IMG/VR virus record: IMGVR_UViG_3300047499_000102
Span: 34,011 to 98,010 of that record
DNA: 64,000 nt
Direction: 5' to 3' (one strand)
From: a virus
Shown here: positions 1-14,956 of the stretch, piece after piece
How positions within the stretch are numbered: the stretch's first letter is position 1
Layout of the letters: each line of letters opens with the position of its first letter
Translations under genes and position numbers: made by a program
Notes under the pieces: model-generated
Seen by the model: the letters and a program-made list of their open reading frames with translations, nothing else
What the model was told of the DNA's origin: nothing
Database searches by the model: none

Positions 1-254
1 GGAGACGGGGCGGGAGTGGGGGCCGGCGACGGGGTGGCGGCGGGCGTGTTCGCCGTGATGGCGGCCGCCAGGTCGGTCGCGCTCTTCGCGAGCTCGGCCT
101 GCAGGTTGGGCAGCGCGGCGGTGTCGCCGGCGGCGTTGGCCGCGATCGCTGCCTGGAGCTGGGTGGCGAGCCCGTTGATGAGGATGACCGCGGACTCCTC
201 CACGGAGGTGTTCTGCGCGACCTGGGCCTGGAGAGCGGTGAGCTGGGTGGACAT
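1..254 (-). CDS. Small Ala-rich helical phage protein (partial, runs off window)
   Basis: MSTQLTALQAQVAQNTSVEESAVILINGLATQLQAA...ANTP, with SD GAAGGAG before ATG 254; a short in-frame upstream extension is possible. Confidence 0.7.
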   Translation of the reverse strand, partial: MSTQLTALQAQVAQNTSVEESAVILINGLATQLQAAIAANAAGDTAALPNLQAELAKSATDLAAAITANTPAATPSPAPTPAPS

Positions 255-595
255 GGACGTGACTCCTTCGAGGGTGAGGCCCTGACGCTCGAGGAGAAGA
301 CGGAGCATCCCTTCGATGCGATCGAGCTGGTGCACGAGGGGCACCCTACCGCATCCGCCGCGTCATGGCACGAGTGACGTCGTCACCTGGATTGTCACGC
401 CGATGCCCATGTCGCCCAGGTCCGCCGCGGGACGCACGCCGATGTGGAGGCGGTCTGGATCGCTGTCGCGAACGCCTGGCACCGTCACCACACGGCCGCC
501 GCTCCACCAACGCGGGAGCGGCGGGTCGAACGGCTAGGCGATGGGCAGCTGCCAGAGCAGGTGGACGACGAGCGCGTGGAGCACCGCGCGCAGCA

Positions 596-1012
596 TCATT
601 CGATGATTGGAGCAGGCGATGGATCTGTCGGTGGCGGTGGCGGGTCCGTGTTCATCACCGCGCTGGCGGGAATGGGCACGCTGGAAGCGGGCCTCAGATG
701 CCAGAATAACTTCCCGAGCGCGTTGAGCCGCTCCGAGGACGGCTCCGTGCCGAGCGCCGTCGCCTGACCTGCAAGCGAGCCGTCGGTCTCCTCGACGAGC
801 GCCACCCGAAAGCCCTTGGCGACCAGGCGGCCGTGATAGGCGCGCAGCTCGGCCTCGTCGGCGACGTGTAGCAGACGCAGGATGGTGCGCTTCGAGATCG
901 GCGCCACGAGGATGCTCTCGCCCGCGGCGTGACCAACGTGAACCATCTGCGCCTCGTGGGTCATGTCGCGCCGCACGAGCACGTACTGGACCGGGTCCTG
1001 AGCGCCTCTCAT
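596..1012 (-). CDS. Peptidyl-tRNA hydrolase 2 (PTH2)-like protein
   Basis: QYVLVRRDM...Q..HVGHAA...L.V.DE.EL......L...G.....V.E.DG...GQ.TALG.EP follows the PTH2 pattern; ATGA overlap with upstream gene. Confidence 0.65.
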   Translation of the reverse strand: MRGAQDPVQYVLVRRDMTHEAQMVHVGHAAGESILVAPISKRTILRLLHVADEAELRAYHGRLVAKGFRVALVEETDGSLAGQATALGTEPSSERLNALGKLFWHLRPASSVPIPASAVMNTDPPPPPTDPSPAPIIE

Positions 1013-1866
1013 GCGGCCACCGAACCGGAAGGATCGACGTGTGGATCCGGCGGATTCGATTCGGGCGACGGCGCGATCTCGGCCACGAGTGCCATGCCGA
1101 ACAGTTGGCGCCCGCGCGCGTCGTGTCCGTAGCAGCGATCGGGATCGACGATGATCCCGGCCACCTTGGTCTGGGCCTGCTGCTTGGCCACGAAGCCGAC
1201 GCCATCGGGGGCCACGCGCGGCCCGTAGTCGCTCCAGAGGACGTCGACGGTCCCTTCGCTCACGAGCTGCGAAAGCTGCGCGAGGAGCAAGCCGTCGCTG
1301 TAGCCGACGTACAAGCAGAGTTTGAAGCCGGCGGCGATCACGGGCGCTGCGCAGTCGCGCACGTAGCTCAGCACCGGGGCGCCCGTGTCGCCGAGCCCCT
1401 CCAGGTCGAGCGCGAGATGGGCACCCTTCGGGTACTCGAGGCGCGTCGCGTCGGAGACCATCCTTGCGCCGTGCTTCGCCCCGAGCGCCCCCGTGGCCTG
1501 CCAACCAGGCCGCAGGACGTGGAAGACCAGCAGCAGAATCCAGCCCACACCGAGCTCGGCATCGCGCTCCGCAATGCTCATGTCCTCGCCGTACCGCCAC
1601 AGAAACACGAGAGGCTTGCCCTCGATGGCCTGACCGTGCAGTTGGCTCGACGTCGCTGGGTTGAACACGAAGATGGTGTCGGCGCCCATGCTGTCGGGCA
1701 CCGGGGTCGCTGCGAAAGACATGGTGGCTCTCCTGGGTCGTCTTCGATGAAATCCTTCGAGGCTGTAGCCGCCCGCGAGCATGTGAGCCATGGCCGCTTC
1801 CAACCACTCCACGCGTTCGCGGAGCTCGTAGTTCTCAAGCTCGATGTCTTCGGCCGACCGTTCCAT
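1009..1866 (-). CDS. DUF1906/GH25-like glycoside hydrolase, candidate endolysin (strong internal start at 1722)
   Basis: GAD..., F.WRY, AE....L..G, G...G...A..L.YP.G..L.LDLE, G....LYVG pattern; SD AGGAG before ATG 1722. Confidence 0.6.
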   Translation of the reverse strand: MERSAEDIELENYELRERVEWLEAAMAHMLAGGYSLEGFHRRRPRRATMSFAATPVPDSMGADTIFVFNPATSSQLHGQAIEGKPLVFLWRYGEDMSIAERDAELGVGWILLLVFHVLRPGWQATGALGAKHGARMVSDATRLEYPKGAHLALDLEGLGDTGAPVLSYVRDCAAPVIAAGFKLCLYVGYSDGLLLAQLSQLVSEGTVDVLWSDYGPRVAPDGVGFVAKQQAQTKVAGIIVDPDRCYGHDARGRQLFGMALVAEIAPSPESNPPDPHVDPSGSVAA

Positions 1867-1875
1867 GGTCCCCGA

Positions 1876-2160
1876 TCAACGTCGTCGGCCCTGGCCCAGC
1901 GCGTGGTGCCTGGCGTACTGCTCTCGGCTCACGTACCCCGTGGGGTTGCCTTCGACCATGCACTCACGGCACTGCTCCGAGATCGCCTTCGCGACGGTGC
2001 CGTCCTCGTTGCGCTCTAGGATGGTGAGCACCGCCTTCTCGCCGAGGCAGACGTAGCAGCGGATGCGCGCGCCCGGTAGCGCCGGCTTCGTCGGGGGCTC
2101 CTCGGGCACCTCCGTGTAGAGCGGCGTCGGCCTCCGATGGATGTCGTCCTCGCCGCTCAT
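1876..2160 (-). CDS. Small zinc-ribbon protein
   Basis: CYVC and CREC pairs; SD AGGAGG. Confidence 0.65.
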   Translation of the reverse strand: MSGEDDIHRRPTPLYTEVPEEPPTKPALPGARIRCYVCLGEKAVLTILERNEDGTVAKAISEQCRECMVEGNPTGYVSREQYARHHALGQGRRR

Positions 2161-2270
2161 GTCGACCTCCTACGGTGAGTCCGGGCTCCCCTTCCTCCAT
2201 CCAGACCCCCGCGGCCGCCGCCAGCACGACGGCGACCAGGCGGCCAGGATGAGGCGCAACGCGCCCGCAA

Positions 2271-2576
2271 CTACGGGGCGCAGACGAAGCCCATGCGCTG
2301 GGCGTCGGCCACGGTCTTCACCGTCGACGACGTGACGTCGGCGCAACTGAAGACCTTGCCCGTGGTCGGGTTGCGATGGTCGTGGTCGACGCTGTAGCCC
2401 ATCAGGAAGGTCGGGCAGTCCGACTCGCCCCCGATGGAGCATGTCGCCGCCTTGAGCGCTTCGCATGCCGTCTTGCACTGCTGCGTCGTGGGCAGCGACC
2501 CGTCAGAGACGCTGCTCGCGCTGGGCGTCTGGCACGCCATCAGCGCGATCACGGTAATGGCAATGGCCGCTCTCAC
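2271..2576 (-). CDS. Cys-rich lipoprotein
   Basis: (V/M)RAAIAITVIALMAC lipobox; GTGA overlap with peptidase stop. Confidence 0.7.
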   Translation of the reverse strand: MRAAIAITVIALMACQTPSASSVSDGSLPTTQQCKTACEALKAATCSIGGESDCPTFLMGYSVDHDHRNPTTGKVFSCADVTSSTVKTVADAQRMGFVCAP

Positions 2577-3511
2577 GTCGTCCCCGTGATCGCCAGCACG
2601 CACGCGTCCTGGATCGAGCTGTCCAGGGCGGTGACGTCGCACTGCCAGAGCCCTCCTCGGATGCCAGGCACGTCGGACGTCCCGAAGCCGTCCTCGCCCC
2701 AGCTGTTGCCGTTCCAGAAGGACAGCTTGTTGTCGAGGCCGGGCGCGCCCTGCAGCCACGAGGTGAGCTCGGCCTGGGTCCCGGACCACTCGTAGTCCAG
2801 CAGGTAATTCGCATGGTCGACGTCGCCGGTCAGGTCGACGGCGCGCAGGATGCCGCCGCGGTACGCCTGGAAGGTCGCCCCCGATGCGGGGATGGCCATG
2901 CTCACGGGGCGGCCCACGGCGAGCGCGGACATGATGTCGATGCGGCGCTGCAGCCCGCTCGACTGGACGAAGAAGGCTCCGTCGACCCTGATGGGCGACT
3001 CGGCCTTGAACTTCTCGGGCGCGGGCTCGATGAGCTCCGCATCGGTCGTGCCAGGCACGTACATGGTGGCCGAGCTGGCGGGGTACTGGCCCCACACGCT
3101 CGCGCCACACCCGCCCCAGCGACCGAGCGCCGAGAGCACCGACGACGGCATCGAGCCGACGTCGAAGAGTGGCACGAGAGTGCCGTCCGGCGCCGGCGGG
3201 GGGCGGTCGATCGTGTACATGCCGTATGCGATGCCCACGGGCGACAGTAGCTCGGGCAGCGGCTTGCCGAGGACCGCGTAGTACAGCGTGATCGCGGCCG
3301 CGTGGGCATGCGCCTCACACGTCTCGGTGTCGTTCTGGTTGAGGATGCCCGGGCCGCCGAGCGACGGCAGCAGCTTTTGCCGGTTGCTCGTCTTCAGGGG
3401 CAGCGACTGCGCCGCGGCGCGCATGGCGCCGATGCCGTGGTGCAGGTGCAGCCCCATGCGCGCGGCGACGACCGCGGGAGCATCGGCGATGTGTCCGGTG
3501 TGGAAGGTCAC
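2573..3511 (-). CDS. Papain-like (C1 family) cysteine peptidase
   Basis: LNQNDTETCEAHA (Q...C), DHANYLLDY (H) and GNSWGEDGFG (N) catalytic motifs; GTG start overlaps upstream stop. Confidence 0.8.
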   Translation of the reverse strand: MTFHTGHIADAPAVVAARMGLHLHHGIGAMRAAAQSLPLKTSNRQKLLPSLGGPGILNQNDTETCEAHAHAAAITLYYAVLGKPLPELLSPVGIAYGMYTIDRPPPAPDGTLVPLFDVGSMPSSVLSALGRWGGCGASVWGQYPASSATMYVPGTTDAELIEPAPEKFKAESPIRVDGAFFVQSSGLQRRIDIMSALAVGRPVSMAIPASGATFQAYRGGILRAVDLTGDVDHANYLLDYEWSGTQAELTSWLQGAPGLDNKLSFWNGNSWGEDGFGTSDVPGIRGGLWQCDVTALDSSIQDACVLAITGTT

Positions 3512-4317
3512 TTCGCGCTCCCGTGCGCCACGCTCGCATGCACCGCGCGCGGCTCCGACTGGTCGAGCGCGTTGACGACGTTGAGGAGACTGCCTCCGCA
3601 GGCTGCCACGCCGTCCTCGAGCACGGTCAGGATGGGCGTTCCCGCAGGCTCCTTCGCGTACGTCGTGGCGACGCAGGCCACGAAGGCCGCGTCCACGGGC
3701 ACGCTGTTGATGGCGGTCTGCCCCTGCTGGGCAGTGCAGCCGGTCTGGGTCGCGACGGTGCCGCCGAGCAGGCCACCGAGGCCGAGCAGCACGAGCGCGG
3801 TCATGCTCGCCTTCACGGCGACGGCCTTGGCGATCTTGCCGGCCGTGGTCGCGTTGGTGTTCCCTCCGCTCAGATCGTCGATGAGGAAGACGGCCGCCTG
3901 CGCCCACTTCGGTGCCGCGCCATGGTTGACGATCGCCGTCAGGATGCCATCGAAGAAACCGCTGCCGCCGGCCAGCACGATGCACGAGAGGATGGCCGAG
4001 CCGATGGGTGTGCCGTTCTGCAGAGCGGAGACCACGCCGTACACCAGGCCGAGGAAGGCGGACACCGACGGCAGCCACTGCGCGGGCAACTTGATTGGGA
4101 AACGACTGTCGGGCCCGCAGAGCTTGCGTGCGTACAGCAGGGCGAAGCCGAACAGGGGCAGCCATCCGTGGGAGCTCACGAGGGCGACGATGTCCTGCAG
4201 AGGCGAGATCGCGACCGGGGTGGTGGTCCCCTGGGCGAAGGCGGTGGTGGTGGCGCAAAGGCTGGCGAACGTCGCCACGACGAGGAACACGGAAGTGAGA
4301 CTACGACGAGGTGACAT
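3508..4317 (-). CDS. Multi-TM holin-like membrane protein with C-terminal lipoprotein-like segment
   Basis: N-terminal signal-like stretch, about 3 hydrophobic helices, then MTALVLLGLGGLLGGTVATQTGC; adjacent to the hydrolases. Confidence 0.55.
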   Translation of the reverse strand: MSPRRSLTSVFLVVATFASLCATTTAFAQGTTTPVAISPLQDIVALVSSHGWLPLFGFALLYARKLCGPDSRFPIKLPAQWLPSVSAFLGLVYGVVSALQNGTPIGSAILSCIVLAGGSGFFDGILTAIVNHGAAPKWAQAAVFLIDDLSGGNTNATTAGKIAKAVAVKASMTALVLLGLGGLLGGTVATQTGCTAQQGQTAINSVPVDAAFVACVATTYAKEPAGTPILTVLEDGVAACGGSLLNVVNALDQSEPRAVHASVAHGSAK

Positions 4318-4383
4318 GATGGGTTCTCCTTGATGACGCTTCGCAGGCAATCGTGGCTGTCGCAGCAGCCGAGGTCAACTGGG

Positions 4384-4641
4384 TCAGGCCAGCGCCTTGA
4401 AGAACTGGAACGCCGATCCCACGCCGGTCGCGTCGCCGGCGATGGTGGCCGCGACGCCGAGGAACGCGAGCATGCTGTCCCATACGGTGGGGCCATCGTC
4501 GCGCTGGAAGATCGCCGTCTTCACCAGCAGCGCCTCGGACTGCTGGAGCTCAATACCCTGGCTGAAGAAGTCGTCCCACTCCTCGGGCGACTTCACCGGC
4601 GCCTTCTCGGCCATCGTCGAGCAAATCTCGTCGTAGGTCAT
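4384..4641 (-). CDS. Hypothetical protein with C-terminal hydrophobic helix
   Basis: ATGA-coupled ORF MTYDEICSTM...FQFFKALA. Confidence 0.6.
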   Translation of the reverse strand: MTYDEICSTMAEKAPVKSPEEWDDFFSQGIELQQSEALLVKTAIFQRDDGPTVWDSMLAFLGVAATIAGDATGVGSAFQFFKALA

Positions 4642-4928
4642 GGGCGACATCCCGCGTCTGCAGGGTACCCGGCCACGTGCCTGTACAGCATGGCGCTCGC
4701 GTTGAGGCACATCGAGCCCTCGATCGATCTCACCGCCCCCCCGGGACAGGGGCCACCGTCGCGCGCGCACACGCTCTCCAGTTGGATGGATGCGTTGCGC
4801 TGGGCCTCGGCCGCAGCGGTGTCCGCATCGGTCCACTTGTCCAGCTGCGAGCCGCCGCACGACAGCGCCGCGACAGCGACAGTGACCGCTCCCAGCATGG
4901 CGAAGAAATAGCGATCGGCGAGACTCAT
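4638..4928 (-). CDS. Lipoprotein (possible o-spanin-like)
   Basis: MSLADRYFFAMLGAVTVAVAALSC lipobox; coupled to upstream TM protein. Confidence 0.65.
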   Translation of the reverse strand: MSLADRYFFAMLGAVTVAVAALSCGGSQLDKWTDADTAAAEAQRNASIQLESVCARDGGPCPGGAVRSIEGSMCLNASAMLYRHVAGYPADAGCRP

Positions 4929-5740
4929 GGCGACGGGTACCTCCCTGGCTTGTGCGGTGATGCTGGCGCCGCCGTGGCGGGCACCGGAGCGGCGGGGATG
5001 GGATCGATGAACGCTGGCGAGGTCGCTGGTGCGGAAGTGGGTGGTGGCTGACGATTGACGCCCTCGAGGAGGCCCTGCTCGTGCGCCTTCGCGACCTCGG
5101 CGGACAACTTCCACATGAAGCCGAGGATGCTGATCACGACGGCGACGGCCACGCCCGCGGCCACGCCCCAGAACCATTTTCTGATCCGCCGCAGGGTCCG
5201 CCCATCGGCCGCAAGATGCTCGTCGGCGATGACCTCGCGGACCCGATCGCTGTCGCTTTTCTGGTCCGGCACCGGGGGCGGTGGCGGGAAGCCGGGGAGG
5301 GTTGTCAGCCGAAGACCCGGATTGGTTTTCTCGATCATGTCGTCGAAGGCCTCGCTGGCGGCGCGCTTCACCCCAGCCTCCATGTCCTCGACGCTCGGAA
5401 GCTCGTCGCGCATGCCCTCGACACGCGCCTTCAACTCATCGCGCAACTGCTCCGCGTGCTGCTCGAGCGCGTCGTTCAGAGCGCCCGCCACGCTCTCCTT
5501 GACCATGTGCTCAAGTCGCGCAGGGATGGTGTTTATGGCAGGACGGATCTCGTCCAACTCCTTGTAGATCGCCTTGAGGTGCTGGTGGTCCTGGGCGACA
5601 ACGTTCGCGTAAACGCGCGCGAGTTCCTCCCACGACGCCCGCGGGAGGTTGCGAGGCACGTCTGTCATCATGGGCCGCTGGGGGGGCAACGGGGCGATGA
5701 GCGGATCGCGGCCGTTGCCGCGGTGCTCGCGGTTACTCAT
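4925..5740 (-). CDS. Coiled-coil membrane protein with one TM helix and Pro-rich tail
   Basis: Helical N-region, WFWGVAAGVAVAVVISILGFMW TM; SD GAGGAG. Confidence 0.7.
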   Translation of the reverse strand: MSNREHRGNGRDPLIAPLPPQRPMMTDVPRNLPRASWEELARVYANVVAQDHQHLKAIYKELDEIRPAINTIPARLEHMVKESVAGALNDALEQHAEQLRDELKARVEGMRDELPSVEDMEAGVKRAASEAFDDMIEKTNPGLRLTTLPGFPPPPPVPDQKSDSDRVREVIADEHLAADGRTLRRIRKWFWGVAAGVAVAVVISILGFMWKLSAEVAKAHEQGLLEGVNRQPPPTSAPATSPAFIDPIPAAPVPATAAPASPHKPGRYPSP

Positions 5741-5776
5741 GGTGTCGTTCTCCTCGGCAGGCGTGTGGAGCGAAAG

Positions 5777-6091
5777 CTACTGCGATACGTCCGGGCGCCG
5801 CTTCGGGGTGTGTCGGCTCGCCCCGATCTCGTTACCGACGTCGCAGCACTCGTTCGGATCCGGGCACCCGACCGTCGGGAACGCTCCGCCGCAGACCTGT
5901 CCCTGCGAACAGCAGCCGTCTGGCTTGCCCGTCCCGTCGGGTGTGCCAGGCGCGTAGCACTCGACCTCGACCTCGCTGCACAGGTGGCCGGGCAGCGGCT
6001 TGATGGTCGGGTCGACCCGGTTGATCCAGTCGCACGCGGGGGCGAGCGTGATGGCGAGGACGGCGACGAAGGCGACGGCGATGGGCTTCAT
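5777..6091 (-). CDS. Cys-rich lipoprotein
   Basis: MKPIAVAFVAVLAITLAPAC; multiple CC motifs; ATGA overlap. Confidence 0.7.
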   Translation of the reverse strand: MKPIAVAFVAVLAITLAPACDWINRVDPTIKPLPGHLCSEVEVECYAPGTPDGTGKPDGCCSQGQVCGGAFPTVGCPDPNECCDVGNEIGASRHTPKRRPDVSQ

Positions 6092-6381
6092 GGGCAGCAG
6101 GCTCCAGGACACGTGCCTGCGGCTCCCCCGCAGAGGGTACCCGCGGCGCAGCATCCGCCGGCGGAGCGATCGGGGTTGGCGCAGGTGTCCTGGCCCGACG
6201 CGCAAGCCGGCAGAGGGCTCGGCTGCGTGGGCAGCCACGGCGCGGCTGCGCCCCCCTCGTGGGCGCTCGCGTCGACGTCGAGCGAGTCGCCCATCCGCTG
6301 CGCGTGGCGCGCGGCTGTCGGACCCGATGCGCACGCGGCAAGGACCGCGGCGGCGGTGAGGATGGCGATGGTGGTCTTCAT
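6088..6381 (-). CDS. Cys-rich lipoprotein
   Basis: MKTTIAILTAAAVLAAC lipobox; ATGA overlap. Confidence 0.75.
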   Translation of the reverse strand: MKTTIAILTAAAVLAACASGPTAARHAQRMGDSLDVDASAHEGGAAAPWLPTQPSPLPACASGQDTCANPDRSAGGCCAAGTLCGGAAGTCPGACCP

Positions 6382-7166
6382 GGTAGGACCTCGAGCAGTT
6401 TGCCGCCCACGTCGATGTGGGCCCCATGCAGCAGCTCGGGCGAGTAGTCGCCCATGTGAGCCTTGCCGACCCACACGCGCATGTTGCCGTCGGGCAGCGC
6501 CTGAAGAACCGCGTGGCGCGCGCCCTTCGTGTCCGCGTTGAGCGGGACCGAGAGGACGACGTTGCCCGGCTTCGCGTTCGCCCAGGCCTTCGGCTGCGAG
6601 GTGATGACGATGCTCCCGTCTCCCGCGGTGACGGTGCCGCTGACCGTGATGCCGCCGCCGTCGTCCAGGGTGATGCCGGTGGGCGGCTTCCAGTCCGGCC
6701 CGTGTGTGATCTCCGGCACGAGCCCGCAGCGCTGGAAGCACTCGATCCCCTCGGTGATGAGGGCTCCCTTGGTGTCCACGTACCCACCAGCGTCATCGCG
6801 AGGCCACGTTGCCCACCGCGCCGCCGAGACGTCTTCGCAAGCCTTCACGCACGGACTGCCCGATGGGTACCGAAACGCCCAGCGCGTGTGGTCGTCGTGG
6901 TCGCGGTCGCTCCATCCCGTCTGGCACGACGTCGTCTCGCCGGTCTGCGCGACGGTCCAGTTCGTCGAGGACGGCACGACGTCCCCGACGTAGATGACGC
7001 CGCCGCCGTCCGGGTACTGCGCCGTTTGCAGGATCGTCGGGCCACCTCGCTGCACGTCGTACTCGACCCGCTCGGTCGGCACCGGCTGCGACTGCTCCAA
7101 TGGAGCCGCAGTCGGGCGCGCGCACGCCGCGAGCGCCAGCAGCGCGGCTGCGAGCGGCGCCCTCAC
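6378..7166 (-). CDS. Lipoprotein
   Basis: (V/M)RAPLAAALLALAAC lipobox; GTGA overlap. Confidence 0.7.
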   Translation of the reverse strand: MRAPLAAALLALAACARPTAAPLEQSQPVPTERVEYDVQRGGPTILQTAQYPDGGGVIYVGDVVPSSTNWTVAQTGETTSCQTGWSDRDHDDHTRWAFRYPSGSPCVKACEDVSAARWATWPRDDAGGYVDTKGALITEGIECFQRCGLVPEITHGPDWKPPTGITLDDGGGITVSGTVTAGDGSIVITSQPKAWANAKPGNVVLSVPLNADTKGARHAVLQALPDGNMRVWVGKAHMGDYSPELLHGAHIDVGGKLLEVLP

Positions 7167-7645
7167 CGCGACCCCGGCCAGTAGACGTGGTCGGCGACCT
7201 TGCAGCTCTTGGTGCAGGCCTCGTAGTCGTGCAGGTAGGCCGCGTAGTCGCCCGGCGAGACCTCCGACAGCGGCTTGCCGAAGCGCTGGTAGACGGTCTG
7301 CCCGACGCTCGCGTAGGCCGCGGTGCAGCCGTAGTCGCACGGCCGCTCGTTGCCATCGACCACCGCGTAGGAGCCTCCATCGATCGTGGGGACGACGGTG
7401 CGGCCCGTCGGCAGCATGAGGCGGTAGTCCCCTACGTGGTAGGCCGGGGGCGCCGCCGCTGCGCTGGGGGCGGTGGTCGCGACGGGCGCGGATGCCTCGA
7501 CAGTGGCCTCGGCCACCCCGGCGTCGACAACGAGCACTGAGGCAGTGGGCGCAGGGGGTGGCAGCGGTGGGACGGGGGGTGGCAGCGTCGCCATGCAAGC
7601 GACCATGGCGAACGTGAAGAGCGACAGCGCGAGCAGGAATCGCAT
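7163..7645 (-). CDS. Lipoprotein with Pro/Ala-rich linker
   Basis: MRFLLALSLFTFAMVAC lipobox; SD GGAGG. Confidence 0.7.
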   Translation of the reverse strand: MRFLLALSLFTFAMVACMATLPPPVPPLPPPAPTASVLVVDAGVAEATVEASAPVATTAPSAAAAPPAYHVGDYRLMLPTGRTVVPTIDGGSYAVVDGNERPCDYGCTAAYASVGQTVYQRFGKPLSEVSPGDYAAYLHDYEACTKSCKVADHVYWPGSR

Positions 7646-7747
7646 CGGAAGTGACCTCCGGGCCGAGGCTAGCACCGCGCATGCGCTGCGTGAACGACCA
7701 TCAGATCGCGTCCCGCAGCGGCACCGCGTCGTTCGCGGGCGCCGCCT

Positions 7748-9649
7748 TCACTGGGTCATCGCCGTCCCAACGAGCCGCGCCACGCCCGCCGAATAGCAGA
7801 CGTGCGGCGTCTGGGTGGACGCCGTCGCCGTGATGGTGGTGCCCCAGTTTTGGCTGTTGGCGATGAGCGTGACGCCGTTGGACAAGCCGGTGACCGCCGT
7901 GAAGTCCAGGTCCCAGCACGCTCCGTCGGTCGCCGGGAAGGTGACCGTGGTGCCAGCTCCCGAAAGCGTCCCGGTGAACTTGATGTGGGGCGAGTTGTAG
8001 ACCGTGTTCGCCAGGACGTTAGAGGCGCCCGAGGTGAGGGCCTGGGAGGTGCTCATCCAAGAGAAAGCATTCGTGCCGCTCACCCCGCCTACAGGTACAC
8101 GGTGCTGTTCGTTGACGTTCGACAAGGCAACATACGTCGAACCACCAAGACTGAACCCAATGTTTTCGTTGGCTGGTCCATTGAGAGTGAGCGACGTGCT
8201 TGAGTACGCGATTGCGTAATTCGTGGAACTTGGAGTAACTCCGTTGAAATAGATAGCGCCCTGCGAAGTGGTCCCCACCTGCGCCCCCATCGCCACGAGA
8301 GTGCTGCCTGCACGCTGCACGTTGACGTACGCCTCCGTGCCACCGCTGTTCGGCGCGTTCACCTGGAGGTTGATCGAGCCTGAAGTGAAAGTAGCGTTAG
8401 AGGCCGCGCCTGCTCCGGCTGCAAGATTGAGTGAGCCACCAGTGACGTTTGTGGTCGCAGTAGCAAAAGCCGATTGAGCGGAGATAGTCGTGCTGTTCGT
8501 CGCCGTGTCCGTGGTCTGGGCCGCCTGATTGAGCGCGGGAGTCAGCGTCTTCGCCCACTGCACCGTCGCCTGCGAGTCGAGGAAGAACGTGTTGCCTGAG
8601 AAATGCGCCAGCGCGCTTCCCAACTGCGTGATGTACACGCTGCCGCCCGTGCCGGCGTTGACGTTCGTCTCCGAGGCGCCGTTCGACATGATCGCGTAGT
8701 TGCCAGTCCCCGGAGTGATCCCACCCGTGCCAGCTAGGTACAGGGCGCCGTAAGCGGTCACCGAGCCGACGAGAGGTTGGACGTTGCCGAACTGCGAGCC
8801 GCCCGACTGGAAGACGATGGACCCGTTCAGGCCCGCCGTAGCCGATCCGCTAGTGCCTCCAGCCCCAGAGCTGAGCACGAGGTTTCCACCCGTGCCGCCG
8901 TTGTTGCTCGCACCTGTTGCAGCCTGTCCCGCCTGCGCGCTGAGCGTCATGGTGACGCCGGCAGCACCAGATCCCGCGGATGTAGAAGACAGAGCTGACT
9001 GGGTGAACGTCGGATTCGCGATGCTAGAGATCCAGGCCCACGTGCTCGCCGTTAGATTAGCTTCCGCAACGTTAGCCACTGCAAATTGCAGAGTGCTGCC
9101 CGGCGCATTGATAATGGTTGTTGAGCCGTTGCAGGCGAGACTGTAGTTCGAGCTAGATGCAGAAAGGTTACTCAGCCAAATAGCTCCGTAGCTGCTTCCG
9201 TTTGACTCTTGCCCCATCTGCACATAGTTCGAGCCACCACTCTGAACTTGGACAGCACCTGGAGATCCAGTACTGTTCGGAGCTGGTGTGTTCAGGATGA
9301 TGTTGCCGGGAGTGTTGGTGCCGGCGTTGAGCGGGGCCTGAGACGCGATGGTGAGGTTGACGCCGTTGCCGGTCGTCGAGGTGGCCTGCGTCAGCGTCGG
9401 ACTCGTGGTCCCCGCGGTCCACTGGAGCGACGCGGGGGTGATCGTGATGGGGCTCGTCCCCGAGATGCTCACGACCGTCTGGGAGGTGCTCGTGGAGCCC
9501 GCGAGATCGCCCGCCCACGTGACGGAGCCGCCCGAACCGCTGCCGCCCACCGGGCCGTAACCGTTGCTCTGCGCGCTCACCGTGCTTGAGGCAAGCATGG
9601 CGAAGACGGTCAGGCAGAGCGCGAGCAGAAGTAGTTTGGACTTCGTCAT
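7748..9649 (-). CDS. Gly/Ser/Thr-rich beta-strand repeat (tail-fibre/adhesin-like) protein with N-terminal signal peptide
   Basis: MTKSKLLLLALCLTVFAMLASSTVSA|Q; GDLAGS...TV fibre-like motif; three internal repeats of about 140 aa. Confidence 0.7.
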   Translation of the reverse strand: MTKSKLLLLALCLTVFAMLASSTVSAQSNGYGPVGGSGSGGSVTWAGDLAGSTSTSQTVVSISGTSPITITPASLQWTAGTTSPTLTQATSTTGNGVNLTIASQAPLNAGTNTPGNIILNTPAPNSTGSPGAVQVQSGGSNYVQMGQESNGSSYGAIWLSNLSASSSNYSLACNGSTTIINAPGSTLQFAVANVAEANLTASTWAWISSIANPTFTQSALSSTSAGSGAAGVTMTLSAQAGQAATGASNNGGTGGNLVLSSGAGGTSGSATAGLNGSIVFQSGGSQFGNVQPLVGSVTAYGALYLAGTGGITPGTGNYAIMSNGASETNVNAGTGGSVYITQLGSALAHFSGNTFFLDSQATVQWAKTLTPALNQAAQTTDTATNSTTISAQSAFATATTNVTGGSLNLAAGAGAASNATFTSGSINLQVNAPNSGGTEAYVNVQRAGSTLVAMGAQVGTTSQGAIYFNGVTPSSTNYAIAYSSTSLTLNGPANENIGFSLGGSTYVALSNVNEQHRVPVGGVSGTNAFSWMSTSQALTSGASNVLANTVYNSPHIKFTGTLSGAGTTVTFPATDGACWDLDFTAVTGLSNGVTLIANSQNWGTTITATASTQTPHVCYSAGVARLVGTAMTQ

Positions 9650-9652
9650 GAC

Positions 9653-10210
9653 TCAGCTCCCCCCGTAGTAGAAGAGCGTGACCGTGTAGTTCGCGATGCC
9701 CGACGAGAAGACGATGGTGGACCCCGCGCCCAACTCGTTCGGGCTGCCCTGCAGCACGGGCCTGCCGAGCGTGAAGGACTGGTTGGCCTGCAGCGTGATG
9801 GGCGGGTTTATCTGCGCGTCGGTGATGCTCGGTCCCGCCGGGGTGATCGTGATCGTCCCCGTGCCGCCCGAGCCAGCCGACCCGGAAAGCATCGTCACGT
9901 AGCTGCCTGCCGGCACCGTGACGGTCGCTGGTGTCGACGTGCCAGCGGTCAGGTAGAAGGTGCCGTTGCCATTCTGGTATCCCGCGTCGTACACGCCGCC
10001 GATGCGAACCCATGGCGCGGGGGGCGGGGGAGGCGACGGAGGACGCGATGTCGGCGACGGGCTCAGCCCCGCCTCCTCGACGTACACGTAGACGGGCATC
10101 GGCTTGGCGCCGATGTACCAGGAGATGCCGCATGCGGAGAGCGAGAACAGGAAGAGCGCGAGCAGCGACACGGCGAGCCAGGTGCCTCGAGCGGCTTGGA
10201 AGCGATTCAT
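9653..10210 (-). CDS. Lipoprotein with beta-sandwich-like C-terminus
   Basis: MNRFQAARGTWLAVSLLALFLFSLSAC; SD AAGGA. Confidence 0.7.
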   Translation of the reverse strand: MNRFQAARGTWLAVSLLALFLFSLSACGISWYIGAKPMPVYVYVEEAGLSPSPTSRPPSPPPPPAPWVRIGGVYDAGYQNGNGTFYLTAGTSTPATVTVPAGSYVTMLSGSAGSGGTGTITITPAGPSITDAQINPPITLQANQSFTLGRPVLQGSPNELGAGSTIVFSSGIANYTVTLFYYGGS

Positions 10211-10242
10211 GGGGTGGCGTCCTTCGGTCATGATGGAGTTGG

Positions 10243-10791
10243 TCAGGCGATCTGGACCCATACGTTCGTCGCGACCTGCACGACGGTCGCCTTGGCGTGG
10301 GCGGCGGCCAGCACGAGTGTCGCGGCGCCGTTGATGGTGGCTCCGGTGGGCGTGATGGTGAGCGTGTTGGCGCCGGACATGCTTCCGTCGCCGTCGACGA
10401 AGGTGATGGGAATGCCGACGGGGAGCCCAGCTGGCAACGTCGCGATGCGCGCGGCGGTCAGCCCCGTCGTCGCGTATGTCGCCCTCGCGCCCGAAGCCGA
10501 GAAGTTCTGGTTGGCCACCTCCACCACGACGGGCGACTGGATGACGAAGTTGCCGCCGCCCGCCGCCGCGGTCGCAGCCACGACGGTGGCGCCTTCGGGA
10601 GTCAGGAGAGAGGACTGTTGGAGTTGCCACGTCTGCATCCCCGCCTGGACGTAGAAGAGGCTCCCATCGGGGTACGCGCTCGTGGGCGACAGCGCCTCAA
10701 GGGCGACAAGGCTCGCAACGCTGCCCGCCAGCGGCCCCGGTGGCCCCTGGACGTACTCGGTGACGACGGTCTCGATGACAGGGTTGGTCAT
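10243..10791 (-). CDS. Tail-fibre/baseplate-associated structural protein
   Basis: QGPPGP collagen-like start; TLPA...G..I...D..G......LTI...G.TING motif typical of fibre accessory domains. Confidence 0.6.
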   Translation of the reverse strand: MTNPVIETVVTEYVQGPPGPLAGSVASLVALEALSPTSAYPDGSLFYVQAGMQTWQLQQSSLLTPEGATVVAATAAAGGGNFVIQSPVVVEVANQNFSASGARATYATTGLTAARIATLPAGLPVGIPITFVDGDGSMSGANTLTITPTGATINGAATLVLAAAHAKATVVQVATNVWVQIA

Positions 10792-10798
10792 GGCTGCC

Positions 10799-11158
10799 TC
10801 AGCTGCCGCTCACGATGAAGGGTCCCGAAAGGAACTCTTGGATGGTGCCGTTGGCCCAGGTGATGAAGAGCTTCGCGAGGTACACTCCCGTCGCGAGCCC
10901 CGCTGTGGTTGCGTTGTCGATGGCGAGCGCGATCGTGCCGGCGCTGCCGCCAAGGACGATCGAGCCTTGCCCGTTGGGCGTCGTCGACACGCTGACCACC
11001 GGCGTTCCGGGGACGGTGGGCGACGTCACCTGAAAAGTCGCCGTGGCGCCCGTAAGATTGACGGGTGAGACCGCGCCGACTGCGCCCGTCTCCCACAGCC
11101 ACGTGCGTGCATAGTCGGCCCCCTGGTCTACGTAGAGGCGACGACGGATGACGGGCAT
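10799..11158 (-). CDS. Virion structural protein (BppU-N-like)
   Basis: L.VDQGADY...W......PVNLTGATA.FQV...G.I.L......TA.L..G.Y pattern. Confidence 0.6.
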   Translation of the reverse strand: MPVIRRRLYVDQGADYARTWLWETGAVGAVSPVNLTGATATFQVTSPTVPGTPVVSVSTTPNGQGSIVLGGSAGTIALAIDNATTAGLATGVYLAKLFITWANGTIQEFLSGPFIVSGS

Positions 11159-11224
11159 GCTCGCTCTTCCTTCCTATGGCTGCGCGGGCTCGCGCGGCAT
11201 CGATGACGTGACTGGAGCGAACGC

Positions 11225-11326
11225 CTACTGGAGCGCGCCGTAGCGCAGCGACCGGAACTCGCGCAGGTGGCCGAGCGCGTTGGTCGTGCCCTGGCACTGC
11301 CTGCGCATGGTGCGGTCCTCACTCAT
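11225..11326 (-). CDS. Very small hypothetical ORF
   Basis: ATGA overlap with stop of 11323-12303; 33 aa. Confidence 0.3.
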   Translation of the reverse strand: MSEDRTMRRQCQGTTNALGHLREFRSLRYGALQ

Positions 11327-12303
11327 GGCTTGTAGTCGACGCGCAGCCTTGCGAACGTCACGACGAGCGACGTGCCGGAGCCGGACCGTTGCGCCCCGAT
11401 GCCAGCCTTCAATGTCTTGCCGTTTGCGAGTTCCCAGTTGTTGGATGAGCTGCTGGAAGTCCAAACCTGCTGAATAGTAAGGCTGGCGAGAGTGGGCCAC
11501 CCGCTAGAGTAGCTGCCCCTGTAAGAGAAGAACTGAGGGTAGGACGACAGCTTCGACACTTCCAAAACCATCACGTTATTGGATGAGCTGATGGAAAATA
11601 AGTCACTGACGAAGCCAGAGTTGTTGCTGTTGTTGTACTCGAAAAAGGTAGCGACGCCGACTCCAGCAGTTCCGTACCCTCTCTTGTACCCGTAGCCGTA
11701 GCTCGTCGCGTTTTCGCCAGTGTCCAGGGACAATACAGCGTTGTCGTAGTTGGCAGAGAAGTTGCCAGCCGAGTTATAGGCCCAAACGCGCACGGAGATC
11801 GAAGGGTCGTAGAGCGGCAGAAGCGACGCTAGGTCGACGTAGAGACCTGGATACGTCTTGCCGGTGTTGTAGTCGCTGGTGGATGCCGGCGTGAACGTGA
11901 TACCGGAGCTGCTCAGCGTGGCGTGCGTGACTTCATTCGCAGAGTTGAACTTAGTAAACGTGTAAGCGCCGATGGTGTAGGTGCCGTCGGAGGTGAACGT
12001 CTGCGACCCCTGCGCCGTCAGGTCCAGGTCCATCAGGGTCGTCCACCCGCCGCTAACGCCACCCGAATCAGAACCAGAACTCGAAGGCGGGTATTGCCAA
12101 CTCCACGTCGAGCCATTGCTGCCGAGAAAGGACCCGTCGGGACCAGGGGACGGGATGAGGGGCGACGCGCCAACCTTCGCCGATGCGTCTGGTCCATCGG
12201 CGTGACCAGCAGGGGCGATGTCTCGCCCGAGGCCGACGAGAACGAGCAGCGCCGCCGACAGGAGGGCGACCGCGAGCGCGACGAGGATGCGAGTCTTGGT
12301 CAT
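11323..12303 (-). CDS. Signal-anchored protein with low-GC beta-rich (lectin/receptor-binding-like) C-terminal domain
   Basis: MTKTRILVALAVALLSAALLVLVGLG; PDGSFL.SNG...SW fibre-type motif; Ser/Tyr/Asn-rich C-terminus. Confidence 0.65.
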   Translation of the reverse strand: MTKTRILVALAVALLSAALLVLVGLGRDIAPAGHADGPDASAKVGASPLIPSPGPDGSFLGSNGSTWSWQYPPSSSGSDSGGVSGGWTTLMDLDLTAQGSQTFTSDGTYTIGAYTFTKFNSANEVTHATLSSSGITFTPASTSDYNTGKTYPGLYVDLASLLPLYDPSISVRVWAYNSAGNFSANYDNAVLSLDTGENATSYGYGYKRGYGTAGVGVATFFEYNNSNNSGFVSDLFSISSSNNVMVLEVSKLSSYPQFFSYRGSYSSGWPTLASLTIQQVWTSSSSSNNWELANGKTLKAGIGAQRSGSGTSLVVTFARLRVDYKP

Positions 12304-12312
12304 GGGTGTCTT

Positions 12313-13206
12313 TCAGCAGAGGTACAGGCCGGCGGCGACCGAGTAGGTGAACCGGAAGCGCCCGCGCGCGGTGGTGAGCGTCACCGGCGAGTTGGTGGCC
12401 CCCGTGCTGCCCACGTAGTTCGGGTCGACGACGGCGATGCCGTTGCCGCTCACGAGCAGCGGGTTGGACTGCCAGCCCGACTTCCCGAGCGGGTGGCCTC
12501 CCGAGGTCGCGAGCGGCACGTCCACGACTTCCCACCAGAGGCCGTTGCCGCCGTTGCTCGCCGCCGCCAGCGAGGCCGCGTTGGGCAGCGTCACGGTGAA
12601 TCCGCCCGCGCTCGTGTCGACCAGGAAGATCGTGCCGGCCTGGGCGACCGTGAACACCGTGGCGGCGTTCACGTACTGCATCGAGCCGCCACCACCCCCG
12701 GAGCTGCCCGCGTCGACGAGGCGAAACATGCGCATCACGCCGCCGGCCCAATTTCGAAGCACGTCCCACTGGTTCGCCTCGGTTGCGCCCAGGCCCTCCA
12801 TGGCGAGGTTCGGGCTACGAATGGACATCACGAGCGACGTGTCCGTGAGCGCCGGGTTGTACGCCGGGTTGGCTGCGCCGTTGGCCAGCAGACGCGCCGG
12901 GTTGTTGTTCACCGTCAGGCGGACGGGGATCTTGCCCCAGTTGTTGGCCCCGGCCGCTGGCGCGTTGAATGCCGGCGGCAGCGTCGTGGGGTTCGCTGGC
13001 TGGAAGTAGTAGTTCCCCATCGCGTCGGTCGACCAGCCAGCCGGGCAGGCCATGCCAGGTGGGTAGTCGACCATCTGCCAAAGCGCGGACGTCCACCCGC
13101 TGGTGTTCGCGGCCGAGAGTTGGACCGAGCTTCCGAAGGGGACCGTGACCGGTCCGGTCACGACGGCGCCGCCGGCAATGGAAACTTGGACGTTGGCGCT
13201 GGTCAC
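12313..13206 (-). CDS. Tail/baseplate-associated structural protein
   Basis: GTG start; VDTSAGGFTVTLP motif; lies in the fibre region. Confidence 0.6.
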   Translation of the reverse strand: MTSANVQVSIAGGAVVTGPVTVPFGSSVQLSAANTSGWTSALWQMVDYPPGMACPAGWSTDAMGNYYFQPANPTTLPPAFNAPAAGANNWGKIPVRLTVNNNPARLLANGAANPAYNPALTDTSLVMSIRSPNLAMEGLGATEANQWDVLRNWAGGVMRMFRLVDAGSSGGGGGSMQYVNAATVFTVAQAGTIFLVDTSAGGFTVTLPNAASLAAASNGGNGLWWEVVDVPLATSGGHPLGKSGWQSNPLLVSGNGIAVVDPNYVGSTGATNSPVTLTTARGRFRFTYSVAAGLYLC

Positions 13207-13251
13207 TTGATCACCTTGTCCCTCACGGCAGGAAGTCGTACCTTCAAAAGC

Positions 13252-13896
13252 ATGCGCAACGCATACACACTGTTCGTGATCGCTTTCATCGGCTGTGGCG
13301 GCGCGTCGTTCTCGGCCGCGCCCCCAGGTCCCCTCGCCATAGAGCAAGACGCCGGCGTCCAGATGCCTATCGAGGCTGGGGCGTCGGACGCGTGGCCCGT
13401 GTGGATTGAGGGTGGCGCCGAGCTCGGCGACGACGGCGGCTCCGACGCAGCGCCCGTCGAGGCGACCGCTCCCATCGCCTTCGCGAACCTCGTCGCCTGC
13501 CTGGTCGATCCGTCGACCATCGTCGTCGGCTGCAACGCCATGCCCCTGCAGCGGTGGGGCGTGCCACCCGTCGTCTACGGTGGCGACGCTGGCCCAGAGA
13601 ACCCGATGGACTGTCCCGATGGCGGGGACACGTGCTCGTCGGCGTGCACATCGGGCGGCGCCACCGTCGCCAACTGCGTGGCGGGAACACCCTGCGGCGC
13701 TGGCTTCATCAACAGCCCCACCGCCGTGTGCGTGTCCTGCGTGGCAGCGGCTGACGTCGTTCGCGATCCGCCTGCGTGCCCCGCGAGTTTGACCGCTGTG
13801 CTGTGCAACGCGCAGCCGACTCAGAGCGGCTGTACGAGTGCGGGAGGGCCCTTCTTCTGCTGCCCAAGCAACGGACCCGCGCCCGCGGTCGAATGA
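13252..13896 (+). CDS. Cys-rich lipoprotein on the opposite strand (moron)
   Basis: MRNAYTLFVIAFIGC lipobox; DAG-rich linker; fills the gap between two minus-strand genes almost exactly. Confidence 0.7.
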   Translation: MRNAYTLFVIAFIGCGGASFSAAPPGPLAIEQDAGVQMPIEAGASDAWPVWIEGGAELGDDGGSDAAPVEATAPIAFANLVACLVDPSTIVVGCNAMPLQRWGVPPVVYGGDAGPENPMDCPDGGDTCSSACTSGGATVANCVAGTPCGAGFINSPTAVCVSCVAAADVVRDPPACPASLTAVLCNAQPTQSGCTSAGGPFFCCPSNGPAPAVE

Positions 13897-13897
13897 C

Positions 13898-14956
13898 CTA
13901 CTCGAAGCCGAGCAGCAAGATCCCGCCGAAGTGGAACTCCACGGAGTGGAGGAGGATGTTCACGAACGGCGCCGTGGACCCGCTCACGTCGACCGCGCCC
14001 GAGACCAGGATCTGGTAGGCGGTCTGCGCGACGTCGACGGTGGGCAGGTTGTTCGGGTCGAAGTCGAGCTCCAACGACTGCGGCTGTCCATCGTTGTAGT
14101 ACGTCGATGCGTTCGAAGAGGGGAGCAGCTGTCCCGACAGCCCGACGCATGTCCACGTGATTTGGTTGGCGCCTGGGTTGTCGATGACCGTCGCGCCCAC
14201 GACGGTCGGCCATGTCGGCTGCGTCGTGCTGCTCGATGTGCCCGTGCCCGCGATGGCCGTCGCCTTGTAGTAGAAGCCGGTGGCGTTGACGGTCTGCGGC
14301 AGTATGTACGTGCCGACCGGGTACACCGTGGAGGGTAGCCAGCTCGTGGCCGCTGGTGCGAGGAGCGAGTAGCTATCGGTCGCCGAGTCCCAGCCGACAA
14401 TGGCGAAGGAGAGCGGGCTCGCCGAGGCGAAGGCCGGTGGTTTCGTGACCACCCGGTAGTGGAGGATTATCTTCACGAGTTGAGCGCTGGCGTGGAGGCT
14501 CCGACCCGGGATGGTCAAGGTCATGTACTGCCCGCCGTAGACCGACTGGGCGCCGACCGTGGAGGGCACCGTGGACACGGCGAGGTAGTCGTCGGGAAGC
14601 CACGAGTAATTGCCCGAGATCGTCGACCCGCCAAGGGGCACCTGCATGTCGGTCATCGACAGCACGATGACGTCGGTGCCAGCGGAAGTGAGCTTTGGAC
14701 TGTTGCCTGCGACCGCATCGACCAGCACGCGGCCGCCGGGCCCAGTGCTCACGTTGCCCGTGAAGAGCGTCCCCGTGGTGATGAATTGCATGCCCGCGCC
14801 GCCGATGATGACTGGCGAGCTCGGGGCGTAGGCGCCTCCCCCGTCGCCGCTCACGGTGCGGCTCATGCGGTCGTCGAGGGTGCGATAGTCCTGGGCACCC
14901 GGCACGAACTCGCCTACCCATCGCCCTGACGGCCTTACGAAATCGAAGTGGCTCAC
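13898..14956 (-). CDS. Tail-fibre-like protein, paralog 3
   Basis: GTGA overlap; GDGGGAYAPSSPVIIGGAG motif; contains Y..G..P...GFYYK...P.WP...G.TV.D...TWTC module. Confidence 0.7.
   Translation of the reverse strand: MSHFDFVRPSGRWVGEFVPGAQDYRTLDDRMSRTVSGDGGGAYAPSSPVIIGGAGMQFITTGTLFTGNVSTGPGGRVLVDAVAGNSPKLTSAGTDVIVLSMTDMQVPLGGSTISGNYSWLPDDYLAVSTVPSTVGAQSVYGGQYMTLTIPGRSLHASAQLVKIILHYRVVTKPPAFASASPLSFAIVGWDSATDSYSLLAPAATSWLPSTVYPVGTYILPQTVNATGFYYKATAIAGTGTSSSTTQPTWPTVVGATVIDNPGANQITWTCVGLSGQLLPSSNASTYYNDGQPQSLELDFDPNNLPTVDVAQTAYQILVSGAVDVSGSTAPFVNILLHSVEFHFGGILLLGFE

Follow-up and report, generated by a model that had tools for sequence, protein, structure and literature searches.

Disruption of the outer membrane, the last step of lysis in Gram-negative hosts, is expected to be the work of spanins (Rz/Rz1, T1 gp11). 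A survey of phages of Gram-negative hosts counted 586 genomes with an identifiable spanin and 91, about one in seven, without one; o-spanins have at most four periplasmic cysteines and tolerate unusual lipoboxes, such as AWAC and LNGC (Kongari et al. 2018; PMC6139136). Phage lipoproteins are also encoded beside receptor-binding genes, as in the cases of T5 Llp (PMC9586334) and T1/phi80 Cor (PMC13673623). Here we analyze a locus with features of both systems, at positions 2271–10210 of a 64,000-nucleotide window from the viral record IMGVR_UViG_3300047499_000102 of IMG/VR. In the original prediction, made from the DNA sequence alone, this 7.9-kb stretch was described as a single module of seven, mostly translationally coupled lipoproteins, interleaved with membrane proteins and a papain-type protease. 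The evidence splits the array: judged by sequence comparison with related loci, it is two adjacent envelope-directed gene sets, a lysis-type set and a fibre-linked exported set, not one system.

Two separable gene sets at the tail-fibre-to-lysis end of a myovirus genome

The window covers bases 34011–98010 of a single 98,010-bp contig with a G+C content of ~67%. Matches to PHROG families of sheath, tape measure, baseplate wedge protein, portal and terminase identify the phage as a myovirus; a prohead protease, a major head protein and a Mu-type portal fused to ParB/NUDIX domains are matched as well, and all these genes lie on the minus strand. The stretch at 2271–10210 lies at the tail-fibre-to-lysis end of this uncultivated 98-kb, 67% G+C myovirus from moss metagenomes. 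Because the G+C content is this high, plain lists of open reading frames (ORFs) are useless, and genes were therefore called from the frame-specific G+C content of third codon positions (GC3), with starts chosen from the start codons and their upstream sequence. In the lipobox region, GC3 and start-codon inspection support a continuous string of genes on the minus strand, designated gA to gN from high to low coordinates; window genes are on this strand unless stated otherwise. Placing the array in a late operon, as was originally done, is not borne out: promoter and terminator scans of the stretch were uninformative, with sites no commoner than in shuffled sequences.

The lysis-type set comprises gG to gL (from 5740 down to 2271), together with gM and gN, and the fibre-linked set comprises gA to gF (from 10210 down to 5777). 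An alignment of 25 homologues of the peptidase gK (40–75% identity) retrieved 11 metagenomic loci. In all eight of these that extend past gK, a gL homologue is located directly downstream, and the gJ C-terminal domain is found upstream. Genes similar to gJ precede gK in L004, L005, L007, L009 and L011; gH-like and gI-like genes come immediately after gL in L004, L007 and L009; and proteins with a coil and a single C-terminal transmembrane (TM) helix, the architecture of gG, as well as holin-like genes, adjoin the set in L002, L011 and L013. In L004, gN-like and gM-like genes are found 2.5 kb downstream, beside an integrase gene. Contigs that share genes of either set show only 40–57% protein identity. 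Because its gene content is constant although the order is permuted, the 5740–2271 region with gM and gN behaves like a single conserved unit. L013 retains gJ-, gG- and gN-like genes, with gK and gL absent.

The fibre-linked set has a partial counterpart in L012, an IMG/VR locus found with the gB alignment, in which a lipoprotein gene (lipobox LAAC) is followed by a gB-like gene (LAGC), a gC-like gene (FGAC) and, coupled to the latter by an ATGA overlap, a gF-like gene; a gN-like gene is located further on. No gJ, gK or gL is encoded within 10 kb in L012, and there is no gB, gC or gF nearby in L004, L007 or L009. Each set thus occurs without the other, so that the two are separable. The original prediction would have been undone by an array of independent, unconserved morons; what we find is that gG-, gH-, gI-, gJ-, gK- and gL-type genes co-occur in related contigs and that gB, gC and gF have the same order in L012. 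A lipidated fibre-like protein is encoded just upstream of lysis-type genes in L011, L012 and L013, and upstream of a gJ-like gene in L011 and L013; for the one in L011, no similarity to gB is detected at the sequence level.

Lipoprotein signals and gene overlaps

All seven lipobox genes initially reported are present in GC3-supported frames, starting at 10210 (gA, LSAC), 7645 (gC, MVAC), 7166 (gD, LAAC), 6381 (gE, LAAC), 6091 (gF, APAC), 4928 (gH, ALSC) and 2576 (gL, LMAC). Counting the internal lipobox of gJ, eight lipoprotein signals are packed within ~8 kb. A pattern of the PROSITE PS51257 type (positively charged n-region, uncharged hydrophobic h-region and [LVI][ASTVI][GAS]C within ~35 residues of the start) is matched by six of the seven, namely gA, gC, gD, gE, gH and gL. 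The same six pass a stricter test that combines Lys or Arg in the n-region, an uncharged 10-residue h-region with a mean Kyte-Doolittle hydropathy of at least 1.9 and the Cys at residue 14–36. Over the whole 98-kb phage, the strict test detects eight signals, six of them inside 2271–10231, against a mean of 0.2 signals per genome in 20 Markov-1 random genomes. The remaining protein, gF, with Pro at position −2 of its APAC box, fails the PS51257-type pattern; in its L012 homologue, however, the aligned Cys belongs to a canonical lipobox, VTAC, so that gF is probably a lipoprotein as well, though one with an atypical box.

The lipobox Cys is conserved in all nine members of the gL family, all four of the gH family and both of the gC family, and by these rule-based sequence criteria, combined with Cys conservation, the lipoproteins are real. 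Their mature parts are rich in cysteines, in mostly even numbers (4, 5, 8, 8, 4 and 6), whereas the adjacent non-exported proteins have none or one (g10, g11, g12 and gG contain none), a contrast that fits folding in the oxidising periplasm. The ATGA/GTGA overlaps reported with the lipoboxes can be read directly from the sequence. Seven 4-base overlaps (gC/gD, GTGA; gD/gE, ATGA; gE/gF, ATGA; gG/gH, ATGA; gH/gI, ATGA; gJ/gK, GTGA; gK/gL, GTGA) join the genes into three translationally coupled strings, gC-gD-gE-gF, gG-gH-gI and gJ-gK-gL.

The lysis-type set

The most unusual protein architecture of the set is that of gJ (3508–4317; 269 amino acids, aa), which consists of a signal peptide, a holin-like domain with three TM helices, a Lys-rich linker, a fourth TM helix and a 76-aa domain. 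The fourth helix ends in an internal lipobox (TQTG-C194), and the domain that starts at Cys194 (3508–3738) occurs elsewhere as stand-alone lipoproteins. An exhaustive HMMER search yielded at least 150 relatives of gJ. Among the matches listed, 132 have the three-TM domain alone, many as stand-alone proteins of 120–150 aa, and 18, including gJ's own entry, have the C-terminal domain. Eight of these 18 are stand-alone proteins of 81–137 aa in which an N-terminal signal and lipobox directly precede the domain; P0146 (85 aa) is a further stand-alone form, in which no lipobox is seen; and the other carriers, about nine, are fusions behind the three-TM module or behind an unrelated two-TM module, all of which keep the lipobox Cys at the junction. 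The internal lipobox of the gJ type is also present in L004, L005, L009, L011 and L013. The C-terminal domain occurs both on its own and fused behind two TM modules, a Rosetta-stone pattern, which is evidence that the tail of gJ is a lipoprotein linked in function to a protein of the holin type. If the N-terminal signal is cleaved and three TM helices follow, the linker would be cytoplasmic and the fourth helix would run from the inside to the outside, so that the internal lipobox is predicted to lie at the periplasmic face, in the orientation needed by Lgt/LspA. Lipidation and cleavage at Cys194 are supported indirectly, by the N-terminal lipobox of the stand-alone homologues. Alignments of the C-terminal domain were too variable for a scan of the loci, and a degenerate DNA pattern gave chance matches only.

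The description of gJ as holin-like is tentative: its N-terminal domain has three TM helices, the match to phrog_1299 (holin) is weak (E 6e-4), and PF06946 scores below the cut-off (E 0.044). Two of 15 stand-alone relatives of the N-terminal domain also match phrog_1299, the best at E 1.3e-6. With the class I (3-TM) holins (PHROG 1299, Pfam Phage_holin_5_1), these stand-alone relatives of 120–150 aa share three TM helices, a charged or Pro-rich C-terminal tail and location in phage lysis neighbourhoods. Apart from the weakness of the matches, gJ differs from class I holins in the addition of a cleavable-looking N-terminal signal and, at the C-terminus, of a lipoprotein domain that follows an internal lipobox. 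We know of no described holin with this layout. In L002, the holin-like module is a separate 74-aa gene with two TM helices (2009–2230, plus strand), followed by a gene for a Gly/Ala-rich membrane protein (2253–2720, plus strand), both downstream of gK-, gL- and gG-like genes.

The C1 peptidase noticed in the array is clearly recognizable. The product of gK (2573–3511), a 312-aa protein without a signal peptide whose gene is GTGA-coupled to both gJ and gL, scores 26.5 bits against PF00112 (gathering cut-off, 20.7). Residues Q59, C65, H233, N269 and W271 are invariant across the 25 aligned sequences; a profile search of the PDB matches papain and cathepsins; and the AlphaFold2 model (predicted local distance difference test score, pLDDT, of 94.4) has xylellain (3OIS) as its top Foldseek match (E 1.8e-12). 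Judging by sequence and model, gK is a genuine papain-family (C1) enzyme with the Q/C/H/N set intact. It can be classified as a xylellain-type C1A cysteine peptidase: like xylellain, it combines the papain fold and the Gln/Cys/His/Asn/Trp set with a short N-terminal extension, not a long I29 propeptide, and no signal peptide. Unlike xylellain, to which it is 18% identical, gK is found in the lysis region of a phage, flanked by a holin-like gene and by the gene for a dedicated lipoprotein. Xylellain-type C1A genes have been recorded in Myoviridae and Siphoviridae in a survey of the papain family (PMC10380794), so a phage-borne gene of this type is not new; what is new is that, in a lysis neighbourhood, it is constantly paired with a lipoprotein. 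The partner, gL (2271–2576), is a 101-aa lipoprotein (LMAC) with a conserved helical domain of ~65 aa that contains six cysteines, modelled by AlphaFold2 as three helices (pLDDT 73). A fold search with this model detects no similarity to the cystatin, chagasin or staphostatin folds, and the ESM Atlas contains only look-alikes scoring below 0.9, mostly from Myxococcota. One further protein, encoded at 12146–12736 of L012, looked papain-like by eye and was dropped (hhalign probability 0.1%).

Upstream of gJ, gG (4925–5740) encodes a 271-aa coiled coil with one C-terminal TM helix (188–206), a Pro-rich tail and no signal peptide; by the positive-inside rule, the coil is on the cytoplasmic side. 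NCBIfam and PADLOC searches of the region produced coiled-coil noise for gG only. Next in the string is gH (4638–4928), a 96-aa lipoprotein (ALSC, followed by GG) with four mature cysteines that is ATGA-coupled to gG and gI; its homologues, which also have the lipobox, directly follow gL-like genes in L007 (E 3e-6), L004 (5e-5) and L009 (0.03). The ~85-aa product of gI (4384–4641), with an acidic N-terminus and a glycine-zipper-like hydrophobic C-terminal tail, has a homologue in L007 (E 1e-5), and similar tails are found in L004 and L009.

At the far end of the set, gN (1009–1866, with 1722 as an alternative start) encodes an Rv2525c/GH25-like protein without an export signal. A profile of four gN sequences matches Rv2525c (4PMQ) over the full length (E 5e-4) and, at E 0.56, a GH25 autolysin. 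Homologues of gN are also present in L012 and L013. By sequence, gN is the likeliest endolysin of the set, a putative muramidase. The neighbouring gM (1876–2160) encodes a 94-aa CxxC..CxxC zinc-ribbon protein, and proteins of this type may be partners or regulators of the endolysin. A CxxC..CxxC protein adjoins the Rv2525c-like hydrolase gene both in the window (gM) and in L004 (9270–9503, plus strand), with the order swapped.

The set resembles spanins in the presence of small lipoproteins with periplasmic cysteines and of overlapping genes in a lysis cassette, and differs from them in several respects. There are three lipoprotein families here, not one; gL has six periplasmic cysteines, against the o-spanin maximum of four; and the domains look folded and disulfide-rich, in contrast to the short, Pro-rich spanins. 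No protein of the region combines an N-terminal TM helix with a periplasmic coiled coil, as expected of an i-spanin, so that a two-component spanin is not recognizable; nor is a unimolecular spanin (u-spanin) of the T1 gp11 type, no lipoprotein in the window having a C-terminal TM helix. Compared with u-spanins, gJ, with its lipoprotein domain behind a holin-like domain, has the reverse layout. In L009, the gK-, gL-, gH- and gI-like genes are followed by one with the u-spanin layout (7357–7971, plus strand), whose 205-aa product combines the lipobox LACSGC with a long coiled coil and a TM helix at the C-terminus; it has no counterpart in the window.

The fibre-linked exported set

At the center of this set is gB (7748–9649), a 633-aa protein of a tail-fibre family that starts with a Sec signal (signal peptidase I type, cleavage motif VSA/QS). 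Over 70% of its length, gB is 40% identical to P0028, a fibre protein without a signal. We collected 24 gB homologues, from contigs of ~1.3–150 kb, half of them at least 24 kb long. About 10 of the 24 (~40%) have an N-terminal Sec, lipobox or TM signal, and the rest have plain fibre N-termini. The signal of gB is not an artefact of start-codon choice, because P0031 keeps both the signal and the cleavage motif. Such a proportion of export or lipidation signals in one fibre family suggests a possible means of excluding superinfecting phages or of displaying phage receptor-binding proteins on the cell surface; if this is true, the annotation of fibre genes in metagenomic phages would be affected, and the signals could be used to track down receptor-binding domains and the cell structures that they target. 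Members of the gB family (window 7748–9649, P0030–P0036) also share a nearly invariant low-complexity block, STSAGSGAAGQ..AQAGQAATGA.NNGG..GAGGTSGSATAG.

Upstream of gB, gA (9653–10210) encodes a 185-aa lipoprotein (LSAC, Cys27) with a Pro-rich linker and a beta-rich C-terminal domain that is weakly similar to that of the upstream gene g10 (independent E-value 3.6e-4). The lipoprotein encoded in the same position in L012 (9244–9744) was considered as an equivalent of gA and rejected, as the two are not homologous. Downstream of gB, gC (7163–7645) opens the gC-gD-gE-gF string. It encodes a 160-aa lipoprotein (MVAC) with four mature cysteines, whose L012 homologue, beside the gB-like gene, is detected by tblastn at E 7e-18. 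The next protein, gD (6378–7166; 262 aa, LAAC), is a near-orphan lipoprotein with a short gB-like repeat, the gB-like segments being detected by blastp at E 0.002–0.005; the ESM Atlas gave no usable match. The last two genes encode paralogues (blastp E 0.006) with a common cysteine spacing, C..C..CC..C..C..CC: gE (6088–6381), a 97-aa lipoprotein (LAAC) with the 8-Cys motif, and gF (5777–6091), a 104-aa exported 8-Cys protein. A lipoprotein that resembles gE and gF in the spacing of its eight cysteines is encoded in L007 (3422–3787). In sequence terms, gC, gE and, probably, gF are small disulfide-rich lipoproteins, and gA and gD have weak fibre-like segments behind their lipoboxes.

What relates this set to Llp and Cor is that all are small phage lipoproteins encoded beside receptor-binding or fibre genes, Llp and Cor acting on the infected cell's own envelope. 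The differences are that four to five such genes stand in a row here and that they are accompanied by a Sec-exported, full-length fibre homologue.

Possible functions and alternative explanations

Among the functions proposed for the array at the outset, multi-component lysis and receptor masking remain the best two, not as activities of one module. The lysis-type set is probably a lysis-associated module. That it also takes the place of spanins is a more tentative proposition, somewhat less likely than not, and with the same reserve we suggest, by analogy, that the fibre-linked set could act in the manner of the receptor-blocking lipoproteins Llp and Cor, extended to exported copies of fibres. 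The joint reading, an unusual spanin-free lysis cassette next to fibre-linked envelope proteins that alter receptors, seems to us to have an even chance of being right on the sequence evidence.

Under this joint reading, the holin-like part of gJ would release gK and gN into the periplasm, where gN would cut glycan and gK would cut envelope proteins or wall peptides, working with gL or restrained by it. The lipoproteins gH and gL and the gJ tail, freed by Lgt/LspA, would then act at the outer membrane, performing the last step of lysis instead of spanins. Proteins of the fibre-linked set would be placed in the envelope of the cell, whether infected or lysogenic, and would there occupy or alter the phage's own receptors, the outcome being superinfection exclusion or the avoidance of progeny loss on debris, as with T5 Llp and T1/phi80 Cor. 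Spelled out in full, as outer-membrane disruption without spanins by a holin that frees its own lipoprotein domain via signal peptidase II, a xylellain-type protease gated or targeted by a lipoprotein, and fibre decoys anchored by lipid or by Sec signals, the scheme is unlikely to hold in every part; if true, each of these mechanisms would be new for any phage. A keyword-based, non-exhaustive literature search found no described precedent for a holin-lipoprotein fusion, a C1 peptidase-lipoprotein pair or signal-bearing tail-fibre homologues. The region provides conserved candidates for outer-membrane opening in spanin-less phages: the holin-lipoprotein fusion, whose halves also occur as separate genes, the papain-type protease with its constant lipoprotein partner, and the second conserved lipoprotein. 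More generally, it points to possible ways for phages to break or mask the bacterial outer membrane.

A number of observations weigh against this interpretation. The holin assignment of gJ is weak, and gN (25.2 bits) and its L004 homologue (26.8 bits) fall just under the gathering score of PF08924 (27.2 bits). A phmmer comparison of gG with the look-alikes that have a coil and a C-terminal TM helix gave no match, so that they share this architecture alone. The gK peptidase could act in the cytoplasm or the virion instead of the envelope; the best PDB match in the fold search with gL has a Z score of 3.5, that is, there is no credible neighbour; and the absence of both genes from L013 implies that the peptidase pair is dispensable. 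In the fibre-linked set, gA has no counterpart in related loci or in the family libraries (Pfam, PHROG, NCBIfam and PADLOC), large protein databases not having been searched; gD has a single homologue (44% identity) among 5.8 billion proteins; and gA and gC to gF show no similarity to Llp or Cor, nor does any member of the set match a Pfam, PHROG, NCBIfam or PADLOC family. The related loci compared are short metagenomic contigs, the contigs of 40–150 kb that encode gK, gB and gJ homologues having been left out. Isolated phages match neither the 7.9-kb stretch at the DNA level nor gK, and neither the gK nor the gB alignment retrieved relatives from the GTDB species genomes, and hence no prophage relative and no host assignment. 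Evidence on the host is thin and mixed, consisting of two gK homologues in metagenome-assembled genomes (MAGs) and the sub-threshold Myxococcota look-alikes of gL in the ESM Atlas.

The arrangement of gK and gL also matches that of effector-immunity pairs, and gL would then be an inhibitor and not a lysis factor. Under this alternative, gK would be an envelope-degrading enzyme, delivered by the virion or released at lysis, and the periplasmic gL would protect the cell or lysogen from its early action or from the enzyme of superinfecting relatives. A gene for an enzyme without a signal peptide, followed in each of the eight loci that extend past it by a small, coupled gene for an exported Cys-rich partner, is the layout known for the periplasm-acting amidase effectors of type VI secretion and their immunity proteins, and L013, with lysis genes but neither gK nor gL, indicates that the pair behaves as a separable unit. 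Nevertheless, gL does not resemble cystatin, chagasin, staphostatin or any solved fold, and the pair is always embedded in holin/endolysin-type neighbourhoods. We regard this explanation as unlikely, but as a serious rival. Still less probable is the possibility that unrelated morons without a joint function have gathered at a recombination-prone junction between fibre and lysis genes, export signals being common to genes involved in host interaction. The near-orphan status of gD, the lack of a gA counterpart in the related contigs and family libraries tested, the unrelated lipoprotein in the same position in L012, the varying gene order among relatives and the lack of matches to Pfam, PHROGs, NCBIfam and PADLOC would all be expected of such a collection. 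It is harder to reconcile with gene sets that co-occur across contigs at 40–57% protein identity, with seven overlaps that form three strings, with a lipobox Cys that is conserved in every family tested and with a lipoprotein domain fused behind two holin-type TM modules.

At the opposite extreme, all 14 genes might form one envelope machine for egress or surface remodelling, whose lipoproteins could spread by myxobacterial outer-membrane exchange. The unbroken run of genes on one strand, with small gaps and without predicted terminators, is compatible with such a machine, as are the exported fibre-like proteins encoded beside lysis-type genes in every related locus that reaches far enough and the weak hints of a Myxococcota host; the occurrence of the two sets apart (L004, L007 and L009 versus L012) and the presence of one gK homologue in a gammaproteobacterial MAG make it very unlikely. 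A role in the virion appears about as improbable, if not slightly more so: the exported fibre-like proteins gB, g12 and gA could still be parts of the particle that stay at the membrane or in the periplasm, where disulfides can form, and join the particles only at lysis, with the small lipoproteins as assembly helpers. Behind its signal, gB keeps the whole body of the fibre family, including the conserved N-proximal motif, the nearby g11 is LtfC-like, of a family linked to fibre assembly, and fibre and lipoprotein genes are interleaved. Lipid-anchored members (P0034, P0036, P0039 and those of L012 and L011) would, however, stay in the membrane, and the phage already has three paralogous fibre genes without signals. 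To our knowledge, there is no precedent for virion assembly from membrane-held fibres. Our preferred reading remains that of two adjacent sets, one directed at lysis and the other at the receptors of the infected cell.

Relatives, host and neighbouring genes

The same phage is present, nearly unchanged, in at least eight moss-metagenome runs. Contigs from four moss-metagenome runs include no informative variants in gene content; for positions 1–14000 of the window, one run contains a variant with scattered substitutions and the same genes. No match was obtained in IMG/VR scans with gD, gK or the baseplate protein as queries, nor with the gK alignment. Among isolated phages, the baseplate protein has a sole match, in Rhizobium phage PPF1 (31% identity, 29% coverage). 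The two gK homologues in MAGs come from one member of the Polyangiaceae and one of the Acidiferrobacteraceae.

Upstream of gA, the string continues with g10 (10243–10791), a fibre-type gene, g11 (10799–11158), the LtfC-like gene that matches phrog_1084, and two further fibre-type genes, g12 (11323–12303) and g13 (12313–13203). The 326-aa g12 protein is fibre-like, rich in Ser, Gly and Thr and free of cysteines, with a hydrophobic TM anchor or signal at residues 1–25, which makes it a second exported fibre-like protein besides gB. Beyond these genes are the three tandem paralogous tail-fibre genes (13898–14998, 14953–15825 and 15829–17427), all of them signal-less, which share modules at E 1e-20 to 1e-25.

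Of the two additional lipoboxes originally noted elsewhere in the window, only one stands up to the strict test. The start at 13252 fails it and is doubtful: it belongs to an antisense frame (13207–13896, plus strand) with a lipobox-like beginning (FIGCGG) and a GC3 of 0.66, which is probably not a gene. The one at 40959 passes and belongs to an ORF of 194 aa (40375–40959, minus strand) with a strong lipoprotein signal (LGIYAC); its location, flanked by the prohead protease and portal genes, is odd for an exported protein.

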